A stretch of DNA of 64,000 bases from Minisyncoccota bacterium (GCA_031291905.1 JARLIC010000137.1:51762-115761); one strand, 5' to 3'; counted from the stretch's first letter, positions 2,009 through 61,965 are shown. Made by a program: numbers and translations. Notes: generated by a model from the sequence alone, not told the origin.

Positions 2009-3293
2009 AGATGAACGCCTCGGCGGCGCGAATATTGCCGACGTACCCGTTCTCGCTGTGCCAGGCGTCGGTGGCGCACAGGGACGGAATCCCCCGCACG
2101 CGGACGCCCGCGAACTCGTCACTCTTGAAGCCGTGAAAGTGCCCCGTCTTGAACTCACGCCACGTCGTCTCGGCCCAGTCCTGCTTCCGCTCCTGGGCCA
2201 TGATCAAGGGGAGCTTCTCGCGTTTGATCTTGTCGCCGTGCGTGTAGCCCAGCAGGTTGACGCCGTACCGGACGTACTTGCGGGATTTCAGGTCGCAGTC
2301 GACCTCCACCCGTGCGTCGTGGCGGAAATGGGCCGCGATCGTCCGTGCCAGGTGGTACGACGTGTGCCAGTCGTGGTTGCCGGGGACCAGGACGACCTTG
2401 ACCTTCGGGCAGCGGTCGGCGAACAGCTCGATCGCACCGACGTTACAGTCCATGCCGATTCCAACCATCTTGGGATACCGACCGTCCAGCTCCAGTTGCG
2501 TGCCGGCGGTGGTCGTGTTGCGGGTCGCATCGACGTGGAAGTGGTCGCTCCCGATCAGGAAGACGACCTCTTCGACGTCGTACTTGTCGAGACGACCCCA
2601 GAGTTCCTCCACCGCTTCACCGAAGACGCGTTCGGCGATCCGCAAGTCGTAGTTCTCGCCCGTCTCGGGCGCCCAGCACAGCTTCCCGAGGTGCAGGTCG
2701 GGGATGTTGATCTCGGCCAGGACGCCGCTGTTGGTTTTGCGTGGGGGCAGGGGAGGGCGGCTGAAGAAAGGAGCCTTCTCCGCCATCCGTGCGAAGAACG
2801 CTTCGGATGCGTCGGTCAACTGCTTGGGGATCAGCCGTTCCAGTTTCAACGAGACCCGCCAGAGGCCGTGGCGCTCGGCCTCGTCCGCACCGTTCCCCTT
2901 CATCTTCATGACGACTTCCCAGGCCGTGCATCCCCAGGTCTTGACGCGCCACGTCGCCAGGTCGACTTCGGCGTAGGCGACGGCGTCTTCCAGGGTGCGG
3001 ATGCGGCGGGGGCTGGCGAGTTCCAAACTCTGTTCGTCGCCGGTTTCCACGATCTTGGATCGCATCCCGTCCGCCGTCGGCTCGTCGATCGCGGCGTCGC
3101 GGTCCAGCTTGTGAAAATAGGCAAGAGCGGCGCTAGCCGAACAGTTGGCTTGCGAGCCGCCGACCCGGCACGAGCCGCCGGACTCGCGGACCTGACGAAG
3201 AATCCTCTTCTGATCGGGCGTCAACTTGGCCAAGGTGCAATTCCTTTTGGTGGGACCAAAAGCAAGGCGGATTGCAAGAAATAAGTATTGCAA
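1956..3293 (-). CDS. calcineurin-like metallophosphoesterase with ~200-aa N-terminal extension
   Basis: Metallophosphoesterase motifs are present in order: DLHLG, GSDHFH, VPGNHDW, GYTHGDK, GHFH. The start is more likely the TTG at ~3230 (MAKLTPDQKRIL, preceded by AAAGGAA). Confidence 0.75.
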   Translation of the reverse strand: MQYLFLAIRLAFGPTKRNCTLAKLTPDQKRILRQVRESGGSCRVGGSQANCSASAALAYFHKLDRDAAIDEPTADGMRSKIVETGDEQSLELASPRRIRTLEDAVAYAEVDLATWRVKTWGCTAWEVVMKMKGNGADEAERHGLWRVSLKLERLIPKQLTDASEAFFARMAEKAPFFSRPPLPPRKTNSGVLAEINIPDLHLGKLCWAPETGENYDLRIAERVFGEAVEELWGRLDKYDVEEVVFLIGSDHFHVDATRNTTTAGTQLELDGRYPKMVGIGMDCNVGAIELFADRCPKVKVVLVPGNHDWHTSYHLARTIAAHFRHDARVEVDCDLKSRKYVRYGVNLLGYTHGDKIKREKLPLIMAQERKQDWAETTWREFKTGHFHGFKSDEFAGVRVRGIPSLCATDAWHSENGYVGNIRAAEAFIYDKEAGFVANYNTIARN

Positions 3294-3308: not shown

Positions 3309-3626
3309 TCAAGCGTCGTCCGCGTCGGGATCGTCGAAGACGTCGACGGGCTCCAGGTCGGATCGGAAGATCCGGGCCGCGCGTTCGCAGGCGGCGATCG
3401 TCATCTCCCACGACGCGTACTTCAGGCGCCCCCTGGTGTCGTGGGGAAGCTCGATCGGCATCTTGCCGCCGGCCGCGAGCTGGACGAACGGCAGGATCGC
3501 TTTCAGCCACAGCCGGTCGCTCGACTGGACCGCCAGGTATTCCGGGTCGACGTCGATGCACTCGTGGGAACAATCGAAACCATCGTCTTCGCCGTCGTCG
3601 ATCGGCGATTCGTCCAGTTCGTTCAT
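3309..3626 (-). CDS. hypothetical acidic protein
   Basis: ORF 3309..3674; internal Met MNELDESP starts at 3626. Confidence 0.4.
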   Translation of the reverse strand: MNELDESPIDDGEDDGFDCSHECIDVDPEYLAVQSSDRLWLKAILPFVQLAAGGKMPIELPHDTRGRLKYASWEMTIAACERAARIFRSDLEPVDVFDDPDADDA

Positions 3627-18907: not shown

Positions 18908-18970
18908 CCTCGCGATATGATTCGCCGAACGGCGGGGTGGGGCGGGCCTTGCTGAATTGCAAGAGATTTG

Positions 18971-18989
18971 GTAGGATCACCGATCCTAC
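18971..18989. promoter_or_regulatory. perfect palindrome GTAGGATC-acc-GATCCTAC in divergent intergenic region
   Basis: Read directly between divergent gene starts at 18907 and 19020. Confidence 0.35.
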
Positions 18990-19019
18990 TTCTAAACTGC
19001 AAGGCTTGGAGCAAGACAA

Positions 19020-20669
19020 ATGGCTTGGGATTCAGCGTACTATTCGTCGGTCAACGAAGATCTCTTGCGATTCATCCCGCCGGATAGTAACCGCGTGCTT
19101 GAGGTGGGATGCGGAACCGGGGCGTTGGCCTCGCGGTTCAAGCGGATCAATCCGAAGTGCGTGTACTGGGGAGTGGAGGCTGACCAAGATGCGGGCGAAG
19201 CAGCTCACAATAATCCTGATCTCGATATCATGTTTTCAGAAACAATCGAGCACTTCCTAGGTCGATATCCCACGGAGTGCGAGAATCCCGATTGCGTCGT
19301 ATTCGGCGACTGCCTCGAACACCTTGTCGATCCACACGCCGTTCTCAAGAAATGCGTTGAATGGCTTAAGCCCAACGGCTCCGTCGTCGCCTGCGTTCCC
19401 AATGTTCAGCATTGGAGCGTGATTCAAACACTGATCCAGGGCCAATGGCCTCGAATGGGATCAGGATTGTTTGATGCGACGCATCTCAGTTGGTTCACCA
19501 AGCAAAGCCTGATTGAGATGTTCGAGGCGGCGGGGCTAACTATCGCGAAGATCGTCCCTCGCAATATCGCGCCAGGCGGCGAGCGTCTCATCGACGCCGT
19601 GAAGGAGTTTGGGCTTACCGAGGACGTCGGACGGTTTAGGGAGGGATGCCAGGCGTATCAATGGCTGATCCACGCCGTCAAGGGCGACGTCCCAAGCCGT
19701 AAAGTTCTCATCCGTGGCTTCACCGCCGAAGGATGCTGCGCCCGACCGCGTCTCACGGAGCCGGGCGGAATGATCAATACGATTCCCGGCTTCCGCTACT
19801 CCGAGGTCACGACACAGGTCGAGCCGGGGGAATCCGTGGTCGTTGTACGTCAGCGATTCAACATCACCGAAGCCGCCATCCGCGAACACCTGAAGCACGG
19901 GCAGTTGATTATCGGCGAATGGGACGACGACCCGTGGTACGAAGGGTTCAACGGCAAGCTCAAGACGCCATCCGTCGAATGGGCTCTCAAGGCTTGCCAC
20001 GCGATCCAGGTCAGCACCGAAGCCATCGCCGAACTCGTGCGACCGATCAACCCGAACGTCGCAGTGTTCCCGAATCAGATCGCAGCCGTGGGACCAGAAC
20101 GAGAGTACGTCGAGTCCGACGTAATCCGGGTCTATTTGGGAGGCCAGAGGAATAAAGGCGACTGGGACAAAGTGATCCCCTTCGTCAACGGCATGTCCGC
20201 CGCGAGCCCGGATGTTTTTCACTTCGTCGTCGTGCACGATAGGGATCTCTACCAGGCCCTTGAAACGCATAGGAAGACATTTTACGCCTTCCAGCCTTAC
20301 GAAAAGTATCGGGCCATACTGAGGACGTGCGATGTGACGATTGCTTCTCTAGCCAACACGCGGTTCAATCGGTGCAAGAGCGATATAACCGTAATCGAAT
20401 GCGCGGTGGAAGGCGTGGCCGTGATTCCGTGCAATCCAGAGTCCAGCATGTACACTGAGCTAAGGTCTTGGAAATACAACAAGAAACCAAGCGAGTTCGC
20501 TGAATCCCTTCGCAGCCAGGGACGAAGAGATCGCAGTTGGTCCATCAGCAACCGCATGCTCTGCGACCACTACAAGAAGCGAGCCGCATGGTACGACGGC
20601 TTGCTCGACGACAAGGCTGAATTGGATCGCCAGTTGTTCGAGCGGCTGCCGGAACTTCGTCCTACTTGA
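19020..20669 (+). CDS. class I SAM-dependent methyltransferase fused to GT-B-like glycosyltransferase domain
   Basis: MTase motif I VLEVGCGTGALA and post-I, II and III motifs are present. The C-terminal half has an ..ECAVEGVAVI.. GT-B-like region. GC is lower than in neighbours and the strand is opposite. Confidence 0.65.
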   Translation: MAWDSAYYSSVNEDLLRFIPPDSNRVLEVGCGTGALASRFKRINPKCVYWGVEADQDAGEAAHNNPDLDIMFSETIEHFLGRYPTECENPDCVVFGDCLEHLVDPHAVLKKCVEWLKPNGSVVACVPNVQHWSVIQTLIQGQWPRMGSGLFDATHLSWFTKQSLIEMFEAAGLTIAKIVPRNIAPGGERLIDAVKEFGLTEDVGRFREGCQAYQWLIHAVKGDVPSRKVLIRGFTAEGCCARPRLTEPGGMINTIPGFRYSEVTTQVEPGESVVVVRQRFNITEAAIREHLKHGQLIIGEWDDDPWYEGFNGKLKTPSVEWALKACHAIQVSTEAIAELVRPINPNVAVFPNQIAAVGPEREYVESDVIRVYLGGQRNKGDWDKVIPFVNGMSAASPDVFHFVVVHDRDLYQALETHRKTFYAFQPYEKYRAILRTCDVTIASLANTRFNRCKSDITVIECAVEGVAVIPCNPESSMYTELRSWKYNKKPSEFAESLRSQGRRDRSWSISNRMLCDHYKKRAAWYDGLLDDKAELDRQLFERLPELRPT

Positions 20670-31584: not shown

Positions 31585-31827
31585 TCAGGCAGGCCCAACA
31601 GGTCCGCCCAACGGCGGCGGCGGGTAGACGATCGGCGGGTTTGGCCCGGGGAAAGGTCCGGGGCTCGGCTCTGGTGCCGGAGTTGGTTCGCTCGGCGGAT
31701 TGCTCGGTGGCCGTGGAACGGTCGGGTCCGACACGATCACGGGCGGCATCACAACGCGTCCGGGGCTGATTCGCGGTTCAAGCGGCATTGCACCGCAGCA
31801 GCCGCACAGGCTGGGTATGAATCGCAT
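31585..31827 (-). CDS. Pro-rich small protein (uncertain)
   Basis: ORF could be a GC-rich artefact. N-terminus MRFIPSLCGCCG is followed by PxP repeats. Confidence 0.25.
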   Translation of the reverse strand: MRFIPSLCGCCGAMPLEPRISPGRVVMPPVIVSDPTVPRPPSNPPSEPTPAPEPSPGPFPGPNPPIVYPPPPLGGPVGPA

Positions 31828-32886: not shown

Positions 32887-33318
32887 TTAGGCGCCGACTT
32901 CGGTCCAGCGTTCGTCGTCCCAATCGCTCGTCATCGCCTCGTAGGTTCCGTCGTGCTGGGCCGGCGGCGGCGGCTGGATATTGTGCTTGGCCCCGTAGAT
33001 CGCCATCGCACGAACGACGAGCGGCGGCGGATTGCCGGTGGTCGCGGTCAGCGTGTCCCACCACTGGTGCGGGCCGTCTCCCTCGATCGCGACCTGGCGG
33101 CAGAAGTCGCACCGGAGGGCGGCCAGATCGTAGCGTCGCAGGAGTCGGGTTGATCGCTGTGTCGACCGGGTGCAGCGAGGGCAGGGGGGGCCGTCGTGCT
33201 TGATCACGACCTGGACTTCATCGTCCGGCACGTCGGCTTCGACGGCTTCAATAATGGCGTCTTCGGCATCGCGGGGCTTCGGGGGACGGCCGCGACGTTT
33301 GGTCTCGATCGTGCTCAT
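32887..33318 (-). CDS. basic zinc-ribbon protein (KRRGRPPKP; CPRC...CDFC)
   Basis: Overlaps the TerL stop by 4 nt. Confidence 0.45.
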   Translation of the reverse strand: MSTIETKRRGRPPKPRDAEDAIIEAVEADVPDDEVQVVIKHDGPPCPRCTRSTQRSTRLLRRYDLAALRCDFCRQVAIEGDGPHQWWDTLTATTGNPPPLVVRAMAIYGAKHNIQPPPPAQHDGTYEAMTSDWDDERWTEVGA

Positions 33319-35864
33319 GCTACCTCTATGTCCGTGTCATGCCACGAGTCGGGCCACCAGCGGGGGTCTTGCCAATCTTGCTGGGCGGCTCGATCTTTTT
33401 CGATCTTCTCCAGCCACGCCCGCTCCAGCCGTTCGCGTTCCATGCGTTCGCGTTCTTCGGGGGGGATGGCGGCTGGGCCACGCTTCTGGACTTCAAGAGA
33501 GGCGTAGGCGAGCACGTCGACTGTGTCGTCGTGGGCACCGTTAGGAAAGGTCATCAACTCGGTTTCGAGGTTGTCGAGTTCCGGGTGATGCTTGGGAAAC
33601 CAAATCTGACCGGCTTCCATGCGTATCTGGGCGTCTACGCTTCGGGCTATTTTATCGACGTTCCCGGTCTTGAGCGACTGGATCGTCAAGCCTTGCTTTC
33701 GAGCCGCTTTAATGACTAGGTTTTGCGCTGCAACATCTTCGATTCCACAATACGACGCCTTGTGCTTGTCCATCATCGCACGAATAGACGGGACGAGCTT
33801 ATCGCCGGTCATCTGTTCGCGATGCATGTCAAGAAGAATCAGGTCGCTGTCCGGCGTCACAGCCCACGCGCCGATGCATGTGTAGTCCGCACTGGTTCTT
33901 GTAGAAAATGCGAGGTCTACCGCCAGGAAAATTCGGCAGTGATCGAGGCTGAATGATCGTGTTTCAAGCCTGATGTAGTTTTCGTGCCGATCATAGTATT
34001 TGAAATCTGATCGCCGAAATAATCCACCACCCTCGGGGGAGGGGCGTTGCTGATACACAGAATTAAAAAGATGTTTTTGGGTTGCTTTGACACGAAGCAG
34101 GTATTCTTCGTTGAAGTGCTCGGGCCAGAGGGCTTCGCCTCGCTTGCGTCCCATCGGATCGTTATCTTCGGCCAAAGCCGGAAGATTATAGACGACCCAT
34201 TCCTCGCCCGTCTCTTTCGCTCGATCCAGGATCTTGCCGACCATGTCGGCTTCATGCCACCTCTGCATGACGACGACGATCGACCCACCGGGCTCAAGCC
34301 GCGTGTACGCGGTTCCGACGTACCAGTTCCAAGCCTTCTCGCGAAGCGTCTCGCTGAACGCATCCTCTTGCTTCTGGACGTCGTCAAGCACAAGTAGGTG
34401 CGCTCCCTTCCCGAGCAACGCGCCCCCCATGCCGACGGTCTGCATTCCGCCGCTGTGGCCCTTGAGCATCCAGCGATCGGCGGCCTTGCTATCCTGGCGG
34501 ATCTTGACTCCGAAGTATTTCTCGCCGTCCTCTTCGATCAGGTCGCGTACCTTGCGTCCCCACTCGGAAGCGAACTCAGCCTCATACGACGCCAGGATCA
34601 CTTTCTTGTCCGGGTTCCTCCCCAGATACCACGCCGGGAAGTACATCGACGTCATTGTGCTATTGCACGTCGGAATCATCGAGCGGCCACACAAAAACAT
34701 GTGGCTCGGTGAGTCGACTTCGATGCAAACAGTGTCGCCGGTTCCGACGTACGTGGCGCCGATGTATCGGTTCGGCTGCTTAACGCCGTCGCGACATCGC
34801 GGCGACTTCCGAGGCGACTTGCAGGCCCCTGCTTTATAGAACATGACGCGGAATTTGGGTCCGCAATCTTTTCCATAAAGCGTAGCTCTTCCAAGTATCA
34901 GGCTCGCCTTGGTTCCGAGTGAACGAACGAGTTCAAGGCAGCCTTCAGCCAATGCTAGGTCTGTCGAGCAAAACTCGACCTGGCCATCCGGAGCGACATG
35001 GCCATCCGTGTCGCAAAGCCCACGAAGCAACTCAAACCTTTGGCTCTCGCTCGCTCGCAGGTATTGGTTCGGGACATGCTTGTTCTTCAGCAGGCCGAGT
35101 TCGCGAAGCTTTCCGCCAAGGCCCATGACCCCAAATACGTTTTCGACCGACCGATCTCTCGTCTCGTAGCCGAGCCGCGAAAGTTCTTCCTTGAACCACT
35201 CAGTATCCAGGCCGTTGCACGTGATGCCGCAGTTCTCGGAGCAGCCGTTTCCAAGCCAAACACCGAGGACGTACGGGTCGATCGGCAAGTCGGCATCGGG
35301 AAGCTGAAGTGCCCCCTGCTTGCGGACCATAAGCCTCTTGTTTCGAGGCTTCGAGAGATAGGCGGTGTCTTTGACGTGGAATATATCGCGAGTCTTCGCC
35401 TTGCTGACGACCCACTCGTGATTTTGGTCGGCGAAGATTTCATCGCCGTCGTCGGTTGTTACTCGGTAGATCGGGCGGTTCTTCCAGACGGGAGACTTTG
35501 CCACAACGTTACAGGGCTGACCGTCTTCATTAAAGACCTGATCGCCCGGCTTCAGTTCCCCTATCGTCGTCCAGCCGGAAGGCGTCGGGATCGGGGTGCT
35601 CAGGGCTAAGGCTTTCCCGTGCCTCGGTGGCACCGTCACAATTAATCGTTTGATCCGGCCCTCCGCCACATCCATCATCTTCTGCGTCAAGAAGAGAAGA
35701 TGTTTCGCCGGCTTCCACTGAAATTCGCTCGAAAGATGTGCATAGTGCGCGGGGCTCAGGTTCGCTATATGCTTCTCTAGGCTGAATCGCTCCTGCGAGT
35801 TGAGTGAGGCCGCCAAGGAGCGTAAGGACTCGATCTGTTGCGGCGTCTCCATTGAGGTGATCAA
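33315..35864 (-). CDS. terminase large subunit interrupted by an intein
   Basis: N-terminal ATPase region runs through the Walker A up to VTVPPRHGK. It resumes as STMTSMYFPAWYLG.. after ~317 inserted residues. C-terminal RNase-H-like nuclease (FLAVDLAFS...DSDLILLD). Confidence 0.85.
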   Translation of the reverse strand: MITSMETPQQIESLRSLAASLNSQERFSLEKHIANLSPAHYAHLSSEFQWKPAKHLLFLTQKMMDVAEGRIKRLIVTVPPRHGKALALSTPIPTPSGWTTIGELKPGDQVFNEDGQPCNVVAKSPVWKNRPIYRVTTDDGDEIFADQNHEWVVSKAKTRDIFHVKDTAYLSKPRNKRLMVRKQGALQLPDADLPIDPYVLGVWLGNGCSENCGITCNGLDTEWFKEELSRLGYETRDRSVENVFGVMGLGGKLRELGLLKNKHVPNQYLRASESQRFELLRGLCDTDGHVAPDGQVEFCSTDLALAEGCLELVRSLGTKASLILGRATLYGKDCGPKFRVMFYKAGACKSPRKSPRCRDGVKQPNRYIGATYVGTGDTVCIEVDSPSHMFLCGRSMIPTCNSTMTSMYFPAWYLGRNPDKKVILASYEAEFASEWGRKVRDLIEEDGEKYFGVKIRQDSKAADRWMLKGHSGGMQTVGMGGALLGKGAHLLVLDDVQKQEDAFSETLREKAWNWYVGTAYTRLEPGGSIVVVMQRWHEADMVGKILDRAKETGEEWVVYNLPALAEDNDPMGRKRGEALWPEHFNEEYLLRVKATQKHLFNSVYQQRPSPEGGGLFRRSDFKYYDRHENYIRLETRSFSLDHCRIFLAVDLAFSTRTSADYTCIGAWAVTPDSDLILLDMHREQMTGDKLVPSIRAMMDKHKASYCGIEDVAAQNLVIKAARKQGLTIQSLKTGNVDKIARSVDAQIRMEAGQIWFPKHHPELDNLETELMTFPNGAHDDTVDVLAYASLEVQKRGPAAIPPEERERMERERLERAWLEKIEKDRAAQQDWQDPRWWPDSWHDTDIEVA
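34662..35612 (-). mobile_element. intein with LAGLIDADG homing endonuclease inserted in the terminase P-loop
   Basis: Hint N-blocks ALALSTPIPTPSGWTTIGELKPGDQVFNEDG and ..IFADQNHEWVV. Two LAGLIDADG motifs: YVLGVWLGNGCS and LLRGLCDTDGHV. C-terminal block ..VCIEVDSPSHMFLCGRSMIPTCN followed by S. Confidence 0.7.
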
Positions 35865-40316: not shown

Positions 40317-40664
40317 TCACCGCGGTAATGCGTTCCAGTTACGGATCGCGATCCGCACTGAATCACCTTTGGAGCCTCGCATATAGCAGTTCGGGCAATG
40401 AACTTGCCAGAAACCAAAGTTCACGAAACAAGCTAGTCTGCCGTTGCCCCAAGTCCCATCGCAACCGCACCCAGGGCAAGGATCGATCGACGGCACTTCG
40501 GATTTGACAGCCTTAACATGGACGTTGATCGCTGCCATCCGTTCGTTGAACGCCCGGCCGTGCTTTTTCTTGCCCTCCGCATCGAGGGACTTGAACCACG
40601 CCTTGAGTTCCTTGGGCGAGTTAATGTCGGCGGGGATCATCTCAACCTCATTGTTGTCAGACAA
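40317..40664 (-). CDS. Lar-family-like restriction alleviation protein
   Basis: PCPGCGCDG....C......HCPNC.......DSVRIAIRNWNALPR fits the Lar pattern (CPFCG...C..CG....eAi.aWNrR). Confidence 0.55.
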   Translation of the reverse strand: MSDNNEVEMIPADINSPKELKAWFKSLDAEGKKKHGRAFNERMAAINVHVKAVKSEVPSIDPCPGCGCDGTWGNGRLACFVNFGFWQVHCPNCYMRGSKGDSVRIAIRNWNALPR

Positions 40665-41040: not shown

Positions 41041-41349
41041 TTACTCAGTTCGCTCGATCGCCGCTATCGCCCACATCAGACATTGCTCAAGATTCGTCAG
41101 CGCCGATGACTGCTCACGCGACGCGGATGAGTGGTCGACGATGGACAAGGCGAGATTCTTGGCATCGTCCCGAAGTAACGCGAGAGGGATAACCTTGTCA
41201 GCCCGAACAGTGAGCTTTGCGGCGAACCGCTTCTCGACTTCTTCGCGGAATCGCTCGGCGCGAGTCTTTCCGTCATCGATATGAACAGCGTAGATGGGTG
41301 GCGGGTTATCTCTCACCGAACTTGGAGCCGGGTACACAGGGTTCATCAA
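41041..41349 (-). CDS. hypothetical protein
   Basis: ORF. Confidence 0.35.
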   Translation of the reverse strand: MMNPVYPAPSSVRDNPPPIYAVHIDDGKTRAERFREEVEKRFAAKLTVRADKVIPLALLRDDAKNLALSIVDHSSASREQSSALTNLEQCLMWAIAAIERTE

Positions 41350-46217: not shown

Positions 46218-47329
46218 TTACTTATTGATCGGCATAACAACATACGTATAATTTTCGCCCGACCTGAACACCACCGCGTTCTTCGGGTCCAGCAAATCCA
46301 CCGTCAGGACCGTATCCATCTCCAGTGACCGCAACGCTTCGACGACGTACTGCGGGTCCATCGTCAGCGACATTCCATCCCCATCGAAGCCGCCCAGCAA
46401 AGGCAACTCGATGCACGATTGGCCGACGTCTGAGGCGTTGCTGGTCAACTCCACGCCATCGGACGAGAACTTGAACGTGACGCCCCGGCTTTCCTCGCTG
46501 GTCACGATCGAAGCCTGTTGCGTGGCCGACAAGAACGACGCCACGTCCAGCGGGATCGTGTACGTCGAGCTTTTGGGAAACACATCCTGATATCGCGGGA
46601 ACCGGCCTTCCACCAGCCGACTGTAGATCACGCTGTTCGACGACCGAACCACGACCGCAACGCCCTTAAGGAAGGCGACGTGAATCTGATCGCCGTCGCC
46701 GGACAGAGCCTTGTCGATCAGCTTCAGAGCTTTGACCGGAAGAACGCATTGCGAATCGTCCACGTCGCCGACCCGCTCAGCAGGAACCGTGGCTCGTGCC
46801 AGACGGCGGCCGTCGGTTCCGACGAACGAGACGCTGTCGTCCGCCCGTTCGACCAGGACGCCGCCGAGAGCGTATCGAGCCGAGTTCAGGTCGGTCGCAA
46901 AAGCCGTCCTCTTGATCAGCTTCTTCAAGTCCGAGTCGATCAGGACCATGTACGATTCGCTGTCAAACCCGGCTGGCTCGGGGAACAAACTTGGTTCTTC
47001 GTTCGGCAGGTTGAACCGTGACCGCTTGCCCCGGATCAGCAACTTGTCATCATCGGCTTCGATGCTGATCTCGTCGTCGATCGACGTCCGCAGGATTTGA
47101 CTGACGCGGTCGGTCGGCAGGATAACATGGCCGTCTCGATCGAACTTCACGCCAAGCAGCGTCCGCCGCACCCCGACTTCCAGATCCGTCGCGATCAATG
47201 TGCATTCGTCGTTGTCGATGACAAGTTTCACGTTTTGCAGGATCGGCTTGGGTGATCGAGCCGGCACGACGCTGGCGACCGTTGTAAACGCTTCGAGCAA
47301 GGCTTTTCGGTTGAACGTCGCTTTCAAGG
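46218..47329 (-). CDS. dnaN: DNA polymerase III beta subunit (sliding clamp)
   Basis: N-terminus KATFNRKALLEAFTTVASVVPARSPKPILQNVKL....LIATDLEV and C-terminal YTYVVMPINK are present. Likely TTG start at 47329 with GAGGTGG upstream. Confidence 0.8.
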
Positions 47330-47815
47330 TTCCACCTCGTGTGTCGGGCCATCTGATAGAAAGGTAGCCATCTGGTAATAGAACTTCTCTCGCCCCTCGA
47401 AGTCGTCTTCGACGGCGCATGCTTCGACCTTGCCGGCGTCCAAAAACATCGCCGCCGCACAGCCAGCCTGATCGATTTCGAGGTATACAGTGCGGTACTT
47501 ATGGGATTCGGTGTGTTTGAACATCATGCCGATTCCACCCTGGACGCAAGGTGACAGCCGCGTCAGGAATTGCATTCCTGGGTATTCAGCGAACAAGAAG
47601 TACTGAGCGACATCCAAAGCTTCCAGCGTCGGCGTCGGTGCGTCATATCCGTCCCACCCTGGCTTGAGCATCGTCAGCTTCACGAGCTTGGATTTCCAGT
47701 CGATCACGCTTCCCCTGACTCCCTCTGATCTCGATCCGCAAAAAACGTCTCGTAATCTGCTTTCGTCAACGACAGCAACTCGTCGTCCGGCATGCTGGCG
47801 AGGTAGGTGTTCCAC
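47324..47815 (-). CDS. hypothetical protein
   Basis: ORF. Confidence 0.35.
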   Translation of the reverse strand: MEHLPRQHAGRRVAVVDESRLRDVFCGSRSEGVRGSVIDWKSKLVKLTMLKPGWDGYDAPTPTLEALDVAQYFLFAEYPGMQFLTRLSPCVQGGIGMMFKHTESHKYRTVYLEIDQAGCAAAMFLDAGKVEACAVEDDFEGREKFYYQMATFLSDGPTHEVEP

Positions 47816-48512: not shown

Positions 48513-48796
48513 GCCGCCTCCTGGTGAATCAAATGCTCCGCGTCACACACCTTGAGGATGCTCAACGCGAGCTGGACCGCCTGATCCCTGGGTAGCTTCA
48601 TGAACCCCCACAGGCCAGGGCTTTTGAACGACACGTCGATCAAATCGCCTTCGCCGTCCTGGACCGCGATTTTGGCTACGGACTGGGCCTCAACGCGAAC
48701 GGTGTCGATCGGCCTTCCGGAGAGCGACCGATTGACCGTCAGCATCCGCATGGCCGTCTCTCGAAGCGAAACACTCATCTTCGCTCGCATTCTCAT
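48509..48796 (-). CDS. hypothetical protein (first gene of the minus-strand block)
   Basis: ORF. Confidence 0.35.
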   Translation of the reverse strand: MRMRAKMSVSLRETAMRMLTVNRSLSGRPIDTVRVEAQSVAKIAVQDGEGDLIDVSFKSPGLWGFMKLPRDQAVQLALSILKVCDAEHLIHQEAA

Positions 48797-48930
48797 GGGC
48801 TCCTCGATTGTCTTGCTTTCAAGCGTCCATCCTCAGCGAGCCCAATCCTACCGGGCGAACATTTGCATGTCAATGGAGAAAGCAAGAAATTTCACTTGCC
48901 ACTAAACAGGGCTTCATGAAGTGAAATCCG

Positions 48931-49304
48931 AGCCGTCGAGACCTTTCGACGGGGAGGGTTTCGCAAGACTCCTCCGCGTTCGGCTGGTCCCGGCCCCATC
49001 GCGAATAGTTGGAGCCCACACGCAGAAATGGCCCAGGATGCCCCAGGAGCGATCCGTGATGTCAAACTGATGGAATCTACCAACCTGGTCCCGGCGATCG
49101 CGTGGTGAGCCCAGGAGAGGCCTCCGAACGCAGGGGGTTGCGAGCCGGGCGACGGCGTCCCCCGCGAACCGATTTTCGGCCTCGCGTGATATACAAGAAA
49201 AACCGTCGGCCTCGTGCGAATTCGGAATTAGCTTGCGCAGTACAAGAACAAGCGTCGCTCAATCTGGATTGCGAGCCGTTCGCCGTCGAAAGGTCTCGAC
49301 GGCT
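48931..49304. promoter_or_regulatory. 22-bp perfect inverted repeat pair (48931-48952 / 49283-49304) bracketing ~330 bp of the divergent control region
   Basis: agccgtcgagacctttcgacgg versus its exact reverse complement. Confidence 0.5.
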
Positions 49305-49574
49305 CACGTCTCCCCTTAGAATTTGCATTCAGGTAAGAAGATTAGATATGGCTAAACCAAATACTAAAACCTAATCCTTCGGAGTCAAAAAGACAATACT
49401 TCGCACGGCCAGCGTGCCCGAACCTTCTTTATATAGGGAATCCATCAAAGATCGTGAATGCAAGCGGCCGATTGTCTTGCTTTGCTAAAAATCTTGCAAT
49501 CTGTCTTGACGTTCGGAATAAACGGCGGTAGGATCTGGCTCGGGCGACAAGAACGTTGGAATGGCAAGGAGAAC

Positions 49575-56640: not shown

Positions 56641-57516
56641 GCAAGACGAACTCGGATCGCGACCGGCTCAACTTCATCGGCCAATCCTATGCCACCGTCA
56701 ACCATAACGGCCATGCGTGGGAAGTCAGGTTCATGAACGGCCAATGTGCCGTTCACAAGCAGCTACGCAAAGCCGTGGACGAGGCTATGCGATTCACCAA
56801 AGCGATAACCCGGGACGGAGATTGAATCCATGTCCACCACCGCATTTTTGATCTATGCTTCTTTCGTGGCCGGAGCCGCCTGTGCGGTCGCCTTCTCTTG
56901 GGTCGTCTCCAAGATCACCTTCCGTCCCAAAAAATAGACACCAACAGCAAGATATTTCGCTTGCTTTTTGGTCGGCGTCTTGCTAAAGTATAGAAAGGAG
57001 AAGATCAATCGTAACAGCAAGACGGAGGGACAGTTTGAGCGTTGTGAAAGAGGCTGTTTTCGTCACGGTTCTGATCGTGGCGTGGTACGCGGCGTGGCTG
57101 GCGATCGATTTCGTCAGACCCATGGATACGGCGGAAGCCAGGAAGTCGAATCCCGGGGCCGTAACGCCCGAGAACGCCCCGCTTCTTGGGCCTGGAATCG
57201 AGCGAACGATCGAAGCGTTGGGCGGATCAGTGGAGGAAGGGGTTGAGCCTTGAGTGAAGATTTCAAGTCGGTCATTGCGTTCGAAAAGGCTTGCGGCAAG
57301 GAATTGGACGCAGTGGAGGGAGAGTAAGATGGCAAAGATGCTGAGGATCGTGGTTCGGTCCTATATTTTCGACGAGGTCGACATCGCCGAAGACGAGTGG
57401 AATGCGATGAGCCGCAAAGACAGGGAAGACATGGCTCGCACGGTTTTGCGAGGCGCGGGCATCTGTGACATCGAGTTTAACGAAGAGTATCTGGACGAAG
57501 GGGAGGACGACTGAAC

Positions 57517-58881: not shown

Positions 58882-59496
58882 ATGGCCGCAAAGACCACCA
58901 GGATCAAGAGGCTGACCAAGAAGAAGAAGGATGAGGCTGCGAAGAACGTCCCGTTGGCCAAGCACATCGCGAAGAAAATGGGATGGCGAGATCTTCCGAT
59001 GGAGGATCAGATCCAAGAGGCGTCCGTCGGCCTGTGCAAAGCGGTGAACGGATTCGATCCATCCAGGGGAACGAAGCTGAGCACCATGATCGGCCGATGT
59101 GCGATGAACGAGATCTTGTCTGCGAGGCGGAAGTACGGTTTGATCCGGATACCAGACTACCTCCAAGAGAAAGCGAACGCCGAACACGGCCTCCAGAAGC
59201 ACGTCAAACAGGCCGGAAAGCGGCTCAGTATCGACGGGATATCGGAGGACTCGGAATTTCATCCAAGGTGCCCCGAAGACGACGACTCCGAGTTCGGCTG
59301 GAAGGCGATGCGGGCGGTTCGATGGGCCGTCCAGAAGCTTCCGCCGATCGAGCGGGACGTGATTCGCGGGCTGATGTTCCGCCAGGAAACAGCCCGCGAA
59401 CTGGGCAAGAAGCACGGCGTCCACGTCTCGGTGGTGCGTCACCTGAAAGACACAGCCTTGGCGAAGTTGCGAGCGAGTTTGGTTAAGCACGTGTAA
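58882..59496 (+). CDS. sigma-70 family sigma factor
   Basis: Region 2: PMEDQIQEASVGLCKAVNGFDPSRGTKLSTMIGRCAMNEI. Region 4: IERDVIRGLMFRQETARELG...VSVVRHLKDTALAKLR. Confidence 0.75.
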   Translation: MAAKTTRIKRLTKKKKDEAAKNVPLAKHIAKKMGWRDLPMEDQIQEASVGLCKAVNGFDPSRGTKLSTMIGRCAMNEILSARRKYGLIRIPDYLQEKANAEHGLQKHVKQAGKRLSIDGISEDSEFHPRCPEDDDSEFGWKAMRAVRWAVQKLPPIERDVIRGLMFRQETARELGKKHGVHVSVVRHLKDTALAKLRASLVKHV

Positions 59497-59511
59497 ATAA
59501 CTGGGGGCGAC

Positions 59512-60072
59512 ATGGCCAAAAAGAAGCCGACCGCGAAAGGATTGATTCCCTTTGACCTGCCATTGAATGAGGAACAAAAAGAACTGGCGGCGTCGTGCGA
59601 GAGGATGGTGGTGAACATAGCGAAGAAGTCGGCGAATCGGAACAACAACTTCGACGACCTGATCGACGCCGGGCAGATGGGCCTCATACGAGCCGCCCAG
59701 ACATACGACGAGGCGAAAGGTGCGTTTTCGACGCACGCGTATCGGTGGATTTTAGCGAAAGTGCTGAGAGCAAGACATGAGCTAAACAAGAACAACGCCA
59801 GAAAGGATTACGCATTCGACGTGCGGAATCTTCCGTCTCGCCCGGCCGAAGACACCTGGTTTGACCCAGATGTCGTATTGCAAGCCTTCGACTCCCTTCC
59901 CAGGCAACTTCAGGACGTTGTTCGACTCAGGGTCTGGGATGACGACGCCAAGAAGCTGGATAAGGTCGCCAGGCGGCTGGGCTGCGTAAAACAAACGGTC
60001 TTAACCCGCCAAGCCAAGGCGTTCGGAATCCTCCGCGACACGCTCTGGCGATACGCACGGGAGGCTTCATGA
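59512..60072 (+). CDS. sigma-70 family sigma factor (second, adjacent)
   Basis: Region 2: FDDLIDAGQMGLIRAAQTYDEAKGAFSTHAYRWI. Region 4: LQDVVRLRVWDDDAKKLDKVARRLGCVKQTVLTRQAKAFGILR. Confidence 0.75.
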   Translation: MAKKKPTAKGLIPFDLPLNEEQKELAASCERMVVNIAKKSANRNNNFDDLIDAGQMGLIRAAQTYDEAKGAFSTHAYRWILAKVLRARHELNKNNARKDYAFDVRNLPSRPAEDTWFDPDVVLQAFDSLPRQLQDVVRLRVWDDDAKKLDKVARRLGCVKQTVLTRQAKAFGILRDTLWRYAREAS

Positions 60073-60422
60073 CCAACTCGTGCCCCGGCTGCCGATCAAC
60101 CAAGGTCCAGCCCGTCTTGTCGCTACATGTCGGCTGGCGGGTCTTGTGCTCCGGGTGCTTGATGATGGGGCCGATCGGCGTGGATCAGACGGACGCGGAG
60201 AACAGGTGGAATAGGTTGCCACGAGTTTCCGATTTGGACGCCGAGATGAGGTATTTGTTCGATGTGATCAGTGCTGTCGCCAGGGGAGCCCATGACGACG
60301 AGCAGATGGAGTTCAGGACAAGTCTGAGCGGCTCTTGGATGACGGTAGGCGGCATCCGAAGGGCTGTTGCTCAGTGGAAGAATCTGCCTCGTGCGGAATA
60401 CGCTATTGAGGAGCTGCCATGA
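60069..60422 (+). CDS. Lar-family-like restriction alleviation protein
   Basis: SCPGCRS......(x12)...CSGC..MGP.....DAENRWNRLPR. Confidence 0.55.
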   Translation: MTNSCPGCRSTKVQPVLSLHVGWRVLCSGCLMMGPIGVDQTDAENRWNRLPRVSDLDAEMRYLFDVISAVARGAHDDEQMEFRTSLSGSWMTVGGIRRAVAQWKNLPRAEYAIEELP

Positions 60423-60703
60423 GTATGACCCTGCACCAGCTCGCCGACGAGCTTCTGGAGATCCGCCGCTACGTGCGGAGCCACCCAAAGCACGTCAAGG
60501 AGCGAATGGCTGTGATTAACGATCGCGACATTGTGAATGTCGGGCGGTATCACCCATTCCATAGAAAACTGAAACGAATGGCGACCAATGTCAACGCCGG
60601 TCTCGATCGCATCGTCGTCGACCCCGAGATCCTCGAAGGCTACCTCTACGGGGCCGCCGCCGAGATTCGTGAACTCGCTATAAAGCTGGAAACTACAGGA
60701 TGA
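60419..60703 (+). CDS. hypothetical protein
   Basis: ORF. Confidence 0.35.
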   Translation: MSMTLHQLADELLEIRRYVRSHPKHVKERMAVINDRDIVNVGRYHPFHRKLKRMATNVNAGLDRIVVDPEILEGYLYGAAAEIRELAIKLETTG

Positions 60704-60718
60704 TTCGGGGGCCTGGAG

Positions 60719-61018
60719 ATGGGCTGGAGAGAACGCAATCGGCCACCGGGCTTCAGGCATCTCAAGCGAGTCTGGTGCAAATACCTTGAGCGGCTTATCT
60801 GGCGGGAATCGGGCGCTTGGCGTGGCAACAACAGAAGCTATCGCGGCTGGGTCCGCCACATGAGAACAACGGCGGAAATTCGGGCCTACGACCCAGAGTT
60901 CTGCCGAGCGAAACGAAGCCCGCACCGACTGCCGGATGTTCGCGACGGCTACTGGCGGCGGAATCAGAGATGCTGGAAACGATTCCGGTCCTCGCAGTAC
61001 AAAATGAGGCCGATGTAA
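60719..61018 (+). CDS. basic Arg/Trp-rich small protein, paralog 1
   Basis: MGWRERNRP...DPEFCRAKRSP...WKRFR. Confidence 0.45.
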   Translation: MGWRERNRPPGFRHLKRVWCKYLERLIWRESGAWRGNNRSYRGWVRHMRTTAEIRAYDPEFCRAKRSPHRLPDVRDGYWRRNQRCWKRFRSSQYKMRPM

Positions 61019-61039
61019 CAATTAGGAGGTAGGCGATTC

Positions 61040-61246
61040 ATGGCAAAGGCAATGGATATCACGGGGCAGGTTTTTGGTAGGCTAACTGCCGTGAGCCGGC
61101 TTGTTGGCCCAAACATTTCCACCGTCAGCATGGACCACGCCGTCGAGGTCGCCCAGGCCGCACGGCTGAAATTCATTCGGGATAACGAAGGCAGGCTCAG
61201 CTACGATCCCGACTGGCACCTGAAGAATCGTTTCGCGGAGGAATAA
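61040..61246 (+). CDS. small protein with GQVFGRLTAV motif (resembles N-termini of phage HNH/AP2 endonucleases)
   Basis: 68-aa ORF. Confidence 0.35.
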   Translation: MAKAMDITGQVFGRLTAVSRLVGPNISTVSMDHAVEVAQAARLKFIRDNEGRLSYDPDWHLKNRFAEE

Positions 61247-61250
61247 TCCA

Positions 61251-61523
61251 ATGGGCTGGCGGGACAAGAATCAGCCCCAGAACGGCAGTCGTTGCTGGCA
61301 CGCCTACGGATGCCTCAACAAGTTCATGGGGCGAAAGTGGGCGAGCGGAAACTACTATCGCCATTTCCGCGTCATGCGAATCCTGAAGGCTTGCGATCCC
61401 GAGTTCAACAGGCCCGGCCGAAGCTATCGCCAGACGCCGCATCCTTGGGACGACGTCTACATAAAGTGCCAGAAGACGTGGAAGAAATTCCGCAGAACCA
61501 GATGGAAACCCAAACAAACATGA
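61251..61523 (+). CDS. basic Arg/Trp-rich small protein, paralog 2
   Basis: MGWRDKNQP...DPEFNRPGRSY...WKKFRR. Confidence 0.45.
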   Translation: MGWRDKNQPQNGSRCWHAYGCLNKFMGRKWASGNYYRHFRVMRILKACDPEFNRPGRSYRQTPHPWDDVYIKCQKTWKKFRRTRWKPKQT

Positions 61524-61774
61524 GCGAGAAACCAAAGTGTCCAGCGAAATGGACGCTACCTGAAATCATTTGGGCATTGCGTGATATTAAATATCTGGGA
61601 CACGACCAGTGGAAGATGGTCGCTGGCAAGAGCGGTCGAGCGAAGACGCATATCCAAGGTTCTCGCTACGACGCGCTTCTTGACATCGAGACAGCCAGGG
61701 CCGTCGTTGCGTGGGAGAAAGTCCGACGCGGAGACTGGCGGCTATCGGTAGCAGCAAACCCGGAGACATCATGA
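61520..61774 (+). CDS. hypothetical protein
   Basis: ATGA-coupled; start MSEKPKCPAKW. Confidence 0.4.
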   Translation: MSEKPKCPAKWTLPEIIWALRDIKYLGHDQWKMVAGKSGRAKTHIQGSRYDALLDIETARAVVAWEKVRRGDWRLSVAANPETS

Positions 61775-61965
61775 CCACCGGCATCACCAAGGCTGCCCTG
61801 GATCAACTGCCGCCCTTCGAGGCTTGGGTGATCAAACGCCGGCTTGTCGACAAAGAGAACTCGTGGAGGCGACTGGAATCTGAATGCGGTCTAGCCGTCT
61901 ACCGTTTAAAGCAGATCGAGCGTGAGGCTTTACTGAAGTTGTTTAATCCCGAGGGACAAGTATGA
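61771..61965 (+). CDS. small sigma-region-4-like HTH protein
   Basis: ECGLAVYRLKQIEREALLKL resembles a region 4.2 helix-turn-helix. Confidence 0.35.
   Translation: MTTGITKAALDQLPPFEAWVIKRRLVDKENSWRRLESECGLAVYRLKQIEREALLKLFNPEGQV

Follow-up and report, generated by a model that had tools for sequence, protein, structure and literature searches.

The 64,000-nucleotide (nt) stretch of DNA analysed here (GCA_031291905.1, JARLIC010000137.1:51762-115761; hereafter the window) carries two adjacent genes for sigma-70-family sigma factors, named here sigA and sigB, and farther along the same strand a gene for a 64-amino-acid (aa) protein that corresponds to sigma domain 4 on its own (Table 1). The DNA belongs to a large, uncultured tailed phage with no less than 119 kilobases (kb); the exact sigA protein is also present on public contigs of up to 119 kb. 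That the element is a phage, as an earlier sequence-only reading of this DNA had implied, is borne out by the terminase, portal and HK97-type capsid genes found in the window. Its filing at NCBI as a Candidatus Pacebacteria metagenome-assembled genome probably reflects a mis-binned viral contig, the content being that of a phage with approximately 58% G+C, and the label therefore informs little on the host.

Table 1. Positions of the sigma genes, promoter-like sites and other features in the window
Feature	Position	Strand	Basis or remark
sigA, 204-aa sigma-70-family factor: region 2, region-3.0-like helix, acidic linker, region 4	58882..59496	+	
sigB, 186-aa sigma-70-family factor: primary-sigma-like region 2, short linker, divergent region 4	59512..60072	+	
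Free-standing sigma domain 4 (regions 4.1 and 4.2), 64 aa	61771..61965	+	
CxxC...CxxC zinc-ribbon protein, 117 aa	60069..60422	+	start overlaps sigB stop (ATGA)
W/R-rich paralogues	60719-61018 and 61251-61523	+	counterparts: L004 5842-6419, L010 5526-5762
Housekeeping-type promoter-like site TTGCTT-N17-TAAAGT	56961..56989	+	read from sequence
Leftward early promoter-like site TTGACA-N17-TAGGAT	48845..48873	-	consensus scan, 10/12 matches
Rightward early promoter-like site TTGACG-N17-TAGGAT	49506..49534	+	consensus scan, inverted repeat I2
Further GCAAGA/TCTTGC regions	18950-19020, 48805-48890, 49465-49510, 56947-57022		intergenic
Sliding clamp	46218-47420		
Acb2/Tad1-type and Lar-like genes	41041-41349 and 40317-40664	-	Pfam

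The open reading frames (ORFs) that the sequence-only reading had placed at this locus are present on the plus strand, each with a Shine-Dalgarno-like GGAG or GGGGG 6-12 nt before its ATG. sigA matches the Pfam families Sigma70_r2 (PF04542; E=1.6e-11, 44.2 bits, cutoff 24) and Sigma70_r4 (PF04545; E=6.8e-7, 29.1 bits, cutoff 24.1), and TIGR02937 covers residues 21-198 with 62.1 bits against a cutoff of 42.9. Its match in PHROGs is phrog_351 (E=3e-29), and its PDB matches are sigma factors without exception, including region 2 of RpoH, SigA and RpoD. sigB is likewise above the cutoffs of Sigma70_r2 (E=1.3e-11, 44.5 bits) and TIGR02937 (59.7 bits, residues 22-176), with region 2 of SigA as its top PDB match (E=4.8e-13). 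Its Sigma70_r4 score of 15.8 bits stays under the cutoff of 24.1. When the sigB family is aligned to the sigA family with hhalign, the alignment runs over 164 columns including region 4 (probability 99%, E=8.8e-18), and approximately 39 of the last 68 residues of sigB do not vary among three homologues. An AlphaFold model built for this protein with three sequences is unusable (mean predicted local distance difference test, pLDDT, of 44) and has four C-terminal helices at low confidence. Judged from the profile alignments, sigA and sigB are sigma-70-family proteins, apparently homologous end to end.

The two proteins are about 26-31% identical, and BLASTP aligns region 2 only (31% over 72 residues). 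Together with the profile matches this agrees with the sequence-only reading in so far as they are divergent sigma-70-family homologues. By sequence inspection against E. coli sigma-70, sigA lacks the aromatic residues of region 2.3 and keeps an IRIP motif and a region-3.0-like helix. By the same inspection sigB joins a primary-sigma-like region 2 to a linker of some 35 residues in an architecture like that of extracytoplasmic function (ECF) sigma factors. The length of sigB and its short linker fit the ECF type, yet its region 2 scores best against primary sigmas. Sigma matches in the phage collection reach 24-32% identity over most of the protein and up to 48% over region 2 alone, and against Bacillus phage sigmas the identity is only about 24-27%. 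The pair is a new and very divergent lineage of a known type of phage sigma, and pairs of sigma genes are ordinary in big phages. No further sigma-like ORF was detected in the window and the next 5.5 kb (hmmsearch with three family profiles, ORFs of at least 35 aa, window and contig L001).

Homologues of sigA on related contigs are 31-49% identical to the window protein, those of sigB 62% and 53%. The sigA-sigB tandem is found on L004 and L006 (sigA 33%, sigB 62% identical) and on L010, where sigB has 53% identity and a frameshift appears to divide the sigA-like gene. The tandem pair thus recurs in two related metagenomic phage lineages. At L010 4246-4865 the sigA-like gene lies in two reading frames; it may have been frameshifted or misassembled, or be a pseudogene. 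On L002 (sigA homologue 49% identical) and L003 (43-47%) no sigB is found next to sigA; the gene after sigA there reads, by its sequence, like the N-terminus of a ribonucleotide reductase.

The 64-aa gene overlaps its neighbours through ATGA on both sides, an 84-aa gene upstream and ThyX downstream, and has a GGAG ribosome-binding site of its own. A longer form, 84 aa from a GTG start at 61711, was rejected, as it overlaps the upstream gene and as the 64-aa ATG form is the one with which homologues and the database entry agree. The protein alone scores below threshold with Sigma70_r4 (15.7 bits, E=0.011) and its stand-alone domain has no match in PHROGs. A profile of its seven relatives finds almost exclusively sigma region-4 chains in PDB (best E=5.3e-6). 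The AlphaFold model (pLDDT 81) has four helices at residues 7-11, 15-26, 32-39 and 43-58, and the top 50 PDB matches of this model in Foldseek are all sigma domain 4, with TM scores of 0.62-0.78. According to alignment and model, the 64 aa make up a complete sigma domain 4. The sequence-only reading was right that it derives from sigma region 4 but described it as region 4.2 alone; the alignment spans regions 4.1 and 4.2, so that the whole domain is there. It aligns to region 4 only and has no region 2, and therefore it cannot itself be a sigma factor or initiate transcription.

An exhaustive HMMER search of 1.84 billion representatives returned three relatives, two of them stand-alone and the third the C-terminal domain of a 359-aa sigma factor, P0009, and a profile search added three further stand-alone clusters. 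In total six clusters of stand-alone proteins, 64-79 aa long, make up the family; they are found exclusively on phage-like contigs and in differing neighbourhoods. Eleven residues are invariant (L13, F16, E17, W19, R23, R24, L35, G40, E50, A53 and K56) and the recognition-helix positions are conserved throughout as Y-(R/K)-(L/I)-K-(Q/H). The ratio of nonsynonymous to synonymous substitution rates (dN/dS) between two homologues is 0.35. One could ask whether the 64-aa ORF is a decaying, functionless remnant of a third sigma gene, for it matches the C-terminal domain of sigma factors only, and alone does so below the Pfam threshold. We hold this to be very improbable: the invariant residues have been kept in six stand-alone clusters with different surroundings, the dN/dS value is 0.35, the gene has its own ribosome-binding site and is coupled on both sides, and the 84-aa gene upstream is not sigma-like and is conserved also without the 64-aa gene. 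The evidence indicates that the free domain 4 is a real gene and belongs to a small, apparently undescribed phage family. One member of the family is automatically named a sigma subunit by the Joint Genome Institute. In the literature we found no free sigma-4 phage protein described, which is not proof of absence.

The closest full-length relative of the 64-aa protein is region 4 of P0009 (metagenomic contig L011), with 58% identity over the matched stretch. Both carry L-P-x-F-E-A-W in region 4.1 and have R-L-K-Q-I-E as their recognition helix. In contrast to the bare domain of the window, P0009 has regions 1.2 to 4 and an insertion of about 50 residues inside region 4. Since the recognition helix is the same, the free domain-4 proteins would be expected to fit the targets of the P0009 class. 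A recent copy of region 4 of sigA or sigB was considered as the source and rejected: identity to sigA is 35% and sigB gives no match, against 58% to P0009. By our reading of the alignments in E. coli numbering, the protein and its family keep equivalents of sigma-70 R562, R586, R588 (as K), Q589, E555, E591 and K597; in the family R554 is replaced by an invariant F, R584 by V or I, and E585 by Y or H.

The genes of the plus strand abut or overlap from about 57035 to beyond 64000, and the gap between sigA and sigB is 15 base pairs (bp), which leaves no room for a promoter or a terminator. The only sizeable gap upstream of the sigma operon, 56826-57034, holds the housekeeping-type site TTGCTT-N17-TAAAGT, and the equivalent gaps in relatives hold TTGACG-N18-TAGAAT (L004) and TTGACG-N18-TAAGAT (L010). 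We infer that this site heads an operon of MazG, sigA, sigB, the free domain 4 and ThyX. Most likely the sigma genes are read together by the host housekeeping holoenzyme as early or middle genes, and the two proteins are most likely made together because their genes lie so close in one operon behind a host-type promoter.

This arrangement bears on the two-step takeover of host RNA polymerase, first for middle and then for late transcription, that the sequence-only reading had suggested. In Bacillus phage SPO1 the middle sigma gp28 is scored as an early gene and the late sigma gp34 as a middle gene, and the 101-aa gp33 inhibits the sigma-A holoenzyme (PMC13401047). A cascade of this kind in the window, with one sigma for the middle genes, the other for the late genes and the small protein as an appropriator, has in its favour the SPO1 precedent of two phage sigmas with a small inhibitor (PMC13401047), the divergence of the two sigmas, and the fact that sigA occurs without adjoining sigB on L002 and L003, so that the two are separable modules. 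The recognition helices of sigA and sigB (regions 2.4 and 4.2) are predicted to differ from each other and from that of sigma-70, a further point in its favour. However, the two genes share one operon and one putative housekeeping-type promoter and hence sequential synthesis by transcription is unlikely; as judged from gene arrangement and promoter sequence, they would not fall into different temporal classes as those of SPO1 do. Nor were two promoter classes found in the motif searches of the late region. We consider the cascade unlikely, and the proposed two steps are not borne out.

A shared late-promoter motif, looked for by k-mer, dyad and expectation-maximization (EM) searches of 18-19 upstream sequences of the late region, gave nothing convincing. 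The search covered about half of the genome and few intergenic regions, close relatives with which to footprint the late arm were lacking, and with that coverage its negative outcome is weak evidence. The missing motif does not refute sigma-dependent late transcription; it leaves the model of middle and then late genes without support. Among the candidates rejected, GC-rich noise was all that the 4+4 dyad search yielded, no robust word came out of the enrichment analysis (TCTTTCAA and words rich in C failed on inspection), the EM search produced only a weak TCTTGCAAT-like motif, and the pairing TCTTGCAAT-N15/17-CCCACC has two occurrences, which are too few to call. Neither TTGCAA nor TCTTGCAA is significantly enriched overall, and a phylogenetic footprint upstream of a gene for a 1381-aa tail-like protein in three phages had only a C-rich leader and the ribosome-binding site in common. 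Two genes of the structural arm are preceded by T(T/C)TCTTGCAAT followed 15-17 nt on by CCCACC (3250-3290 and 18937-18975, both on the minus strand), and these two sites hint weakly at a non-housekeeping promoter. The coding strand has no sigma-70-type match from 20 to 40 kb, in contrast to the well-placed matches of the early region, which is weakly compatible with dependence on the phage sigmas.

The explanation that we regard as moderately probable for the locus as a whole is as follows. The window comprises the early or replication arm and the structural arm of the phage. After infection the host housekeeping holoenzyme would read promoters of the form TTGAC-N17/18-TAnnAT, one of which would head the long, translationally coupled operon, so that MazG, sigA, sigB, the small proteins, the 64-aa protein and ThyX would appear together. 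sigA and sigB would bind the host core RNA polymerase through region 2 and, having recognition helices (regions 2.4 and 4.2) unlike each other's and those of sigma-70, would direct it to two sets of phage promoters, most probably those of the minus-strand structural module. The 64-aa protein would act in trans as a domain-4 decoy on the sites usually taken by domain 4 of a resident sigma, namely the tip of the beta-flap, the cognate -35-type element, or both, and would damp transcription dependent on the resident sigma while the phage sigmas take over. Within this explanation the role of the 64-aa protein as a decoy or competitor at the -35 element or the beta-flap is our preferred but tentative assignment, possible but short of probable. 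A role as sigma mimic or appropriator, raised by the sequence-only reading, is likewise no more than possible.

The surroundings of the domain-4 gene in relatives fit such an early takeover role. Contigs L012-L016, which carry domain-4 homologues, have SSB, the clamp and a ParB-like protein in common with the window (51-60% identity), and in them the domain-4 gene lies at SSB or a few genes after it; on L012 it follows two Acb2/Tad1-type genes. The same types of anti-defence genes adjoin SSB in the window, yet the 64-aa gene does not. The gene therefore moves within the early or accessory region of this group of phages.

Several observations weigh against the explanation outlined above. The late-region upstream sequences revealed no class of promoters that could be assigned to sigA or sigB, and the structural arm contains housekeeping-like sites on the minus strand (574-546 and 3312-3284). 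L004 and L005, the closest relatives by synteny, have both sigma genes and lack the 64-aa gene and ThyX at this spot, and so the 64-aa gene is dispensable for the sigma pair. Binding of the 64-aa protein to the flap or to DNA is a prediction from homology, and a free domain 4 that is without the anchors of regions 2 and 3.2 may have low affinity for the core polymerase.

The role of the 64-aa protein can also be considered in relation to a hexamer, GCAAGA/TCTTGC, that is enriched in the intergenic DNA of the window, where 13% of the sequence holds 21 of the 73 copies. At 32810-32870 copies are paired in inverted orientation with 6-bp spacers between them, and the hexamer is repeated around the promoters at 18.9, 48.8, 49.5 and 56.9 kb. 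GCAAGACAA recurs in 5' leaders and the 15-mer CGATTGTCTTGCTTT is an exact repeat at 48805 and 49469. The hexamer is probably an operator for some regulator. The 64-aa protein might be a plain sequence-specific helix-turn-helix regulator, a repressor or an activator, that descends from sigma domain 4, makes no contact with the flap and acts, for example, on these elements. The family-wide conservation of the recognition-helix positions and the clustering of the over-represented hexamer around promoters speak for it. On the other hand, nothing ties the 64-aa protein to this hexamer, which is found in a window whose close relatives L004 and L005 lack the gene at this locus, and a protein of only 64 aa has no evident dimerisation segment. 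We rank the plain regulator next after the decoy, as somewhat less likely.

It has been described that a sigma factor can be divided between two polypeptides, SigO and RsoA, in Bacillus subtilis (PMC10141391). If the free domain 4 gave -35 recognition in trans in the same manner, the weak Pfam score of sigB region 4 would be accounted for, and the domain does occur fused in the full-length sigma P0009. We consider a split sigma quite improbable in the window, as the C-terminus of sigB is highly conserved and aligns to region 4 of sigA, and relatives that bear sigB have no 64-aa gene at this position. Moreover, no ORF with region 2 only was found in the window and the following 5.5 kb, a search that covered about half of the genome. 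SigO-RsoA is cellular and stress-regulated, whereas the phage has, in the sequence searched here, no partner that is without domain 4. For the whole free domain-4 family, a function as decoys that strip -35-dependent recognition from the resident sigma, be it of the host or of the phage, or alternatively as the detachable -35 module of a split phage sigma, is conceivable but rather unlikely.

Among known phage systems, SPO1 resembles the window phage in being large and of lytic type, in having no RNA polymerase of its own and in its two small, divergent sigma-70-family proteins; its gp33 is a small accessory protein at the interface of sigma region 4 and beta, and the window phage also has a small protein. 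Unlike those of SPO1, which are scored as an early and a middle gene, the sigma genes are co-operonic here, and the small protein is homologous to sigma domain 4, where gp33 is described as inserting a helix between beta and region 4 of sigma-A. In T4, gp55, a region-2-like sigma, works with gp33 and the gp45 clamp, and AsiA and MotA bring about sigma appropriation (PMC2988020, PMC2988021 and PMC6755090). As in T4, sigma functions in the window are distributed over several small phage proteins and a clamp is encoded; the step that the T4 proteins target, sigma region 4 and the flap, would be the same. Both window sigmas differ from this system in apparently keeping their own region 4, and by sequence inspection the 64-aa protein has no evident clamp-binding tail. 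The ten ORFs scanned between 58527 and 62909 gave no Pfam or PHROG match to the AsiA, MotA, gp33 or gp55 families. In phiEco32 the sigma gp36 is accompanied by the small gp79, which displaces the host sigma and favours the phage sigma (PMC12276001 and PMC8948821). That phage, unlike the one studied here, has one sigma only, and gp79 is not known to be homologous to sigma domain 4.

The tandem sigma pair adds only a new and very divergent lineage, phage sigmas being textbook material. The free domain 4, at 64 residues, is a minimal natural version of the sigma module that contacts the beta-flap, -35 DNA, many activators and anti-sigmas. Should it compete with resident sigmas, it would be an inhibitor of transcription of a new class, made by imitating a domain of its target, and a compact tool to probe or block -35-dependent initiation. 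None of AsiA, gp33 and gp79 is known to be a sigma homologue, and the route of a decoy would be distinct from theirs. Should it prove to be no more than a DNA-binding regulator, it would document the recycling of a sigma domain into a phage transcription factor.

Regarding the other small proteins of the operon, the N-terminal 52 residues of the 117-aa zinc-ribbon protein are 65% identical in proteins encoded directly 3' of sigB in L004-L008. The protein is thus conserved and it is translationally coupled to sigB; no HxxxCxxC anti-sigma motif was noticed in it and it has no significant match in Pfam or PHROGs. One may conceive of it as an anti-sigma factor, but this has no support. The sigma operon also encodes a pair of paralogous W/R-rich proteins, 90-99 aa long and very basic. 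They start with MGWR(E/D)(R/K)N, have a DPEF motif in common and are duplicated in L004 too; they match no Pfam or PHROG family and could bind nucleic acid or the polymerase.

ORFs of gene size whose codon positions have the expected GC pattern are confined almost entirely to one strand in each part of the window, the minus strand between position 1 and about 48.8 kb and the plus strand from there on, beginning at about 49.5 kb. Encoded on the minus arm are a T4-type large terminase with a LAGLIDADG insertion, a portal, an HK97-type capsid and a tail-completion domain, and also a DNA polymerase III beta clamp, a C5 cytosine methylase, SSB and a ParB-like protein. On the plus arm are RNA ligase, an RNase T-type exonuclease, DUF5131, MazG, both sigma genes and ThyX. 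The arms are separated by a divergent region of 784 bp (48791-49574) with mirrored TTGAC-N17-TAGGAT sites; their inversion (repeat I2) extends into the flanks downstream of both. In this region a 37-nt inverted repeat (48930-48966 and 49269-49305) brackets 302 bp, and each of its arms has its own hairpin. The divergent region could be a regulatory switch or a replication origin.

There is no DNA-level match to the window among 50,697 phage records, and neither sigA, sigB nor the portal protein nor the domain-4 family found a relative in IMG/VR. A scan of 185,579 reference genomes with the domain-4 family had no match and therefore provides no host clue. The metagenome scan with the sigA family returned generic cellular region-2 matches only and no related phage, and scans for tRNA and Rfam families found nothing.

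The large terminase (33315-35864, minus strand, 849 aa) matches LAGLIDADG_3 at residues 275-322, before its Terminase_6N and 6C domains, which suggests an intein or a fused homing endonuclease. Just 3' of SSB lies the gene of an Acb2/Tad1 hairpin-domain protein (E=2.6e-9; the name is that given by Pfam to an anti-defence family), and likewise just 3' of SSB is a match to Lar restriction-alleviation proteins slightly under the cutoff. The 1381-aa protein, with a weak tail-protein match (phrog_1101), is encoded at L001 15555-19700 on the plus strand after the early genes, about 5.5 kb past the end of the window. Its gene is preceded by a hairpin and a C-rich leader, the latter being partly common to L004.

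An uncalled ORF for an 80-aa proline-rich protein (31585-31827, minus strand), ending in PIVYPPPPLGGPVGPA, lies within an apparent gap of 819 bp. It is approximately 70% identical over 53 residues to another uncalled ORF, L011 1898-2191 on the plus strand. L011 also has a homologue of 3309-3626, and with these two small proteins in common with the window, besides the domain 4, it may be a related phage or prophage.

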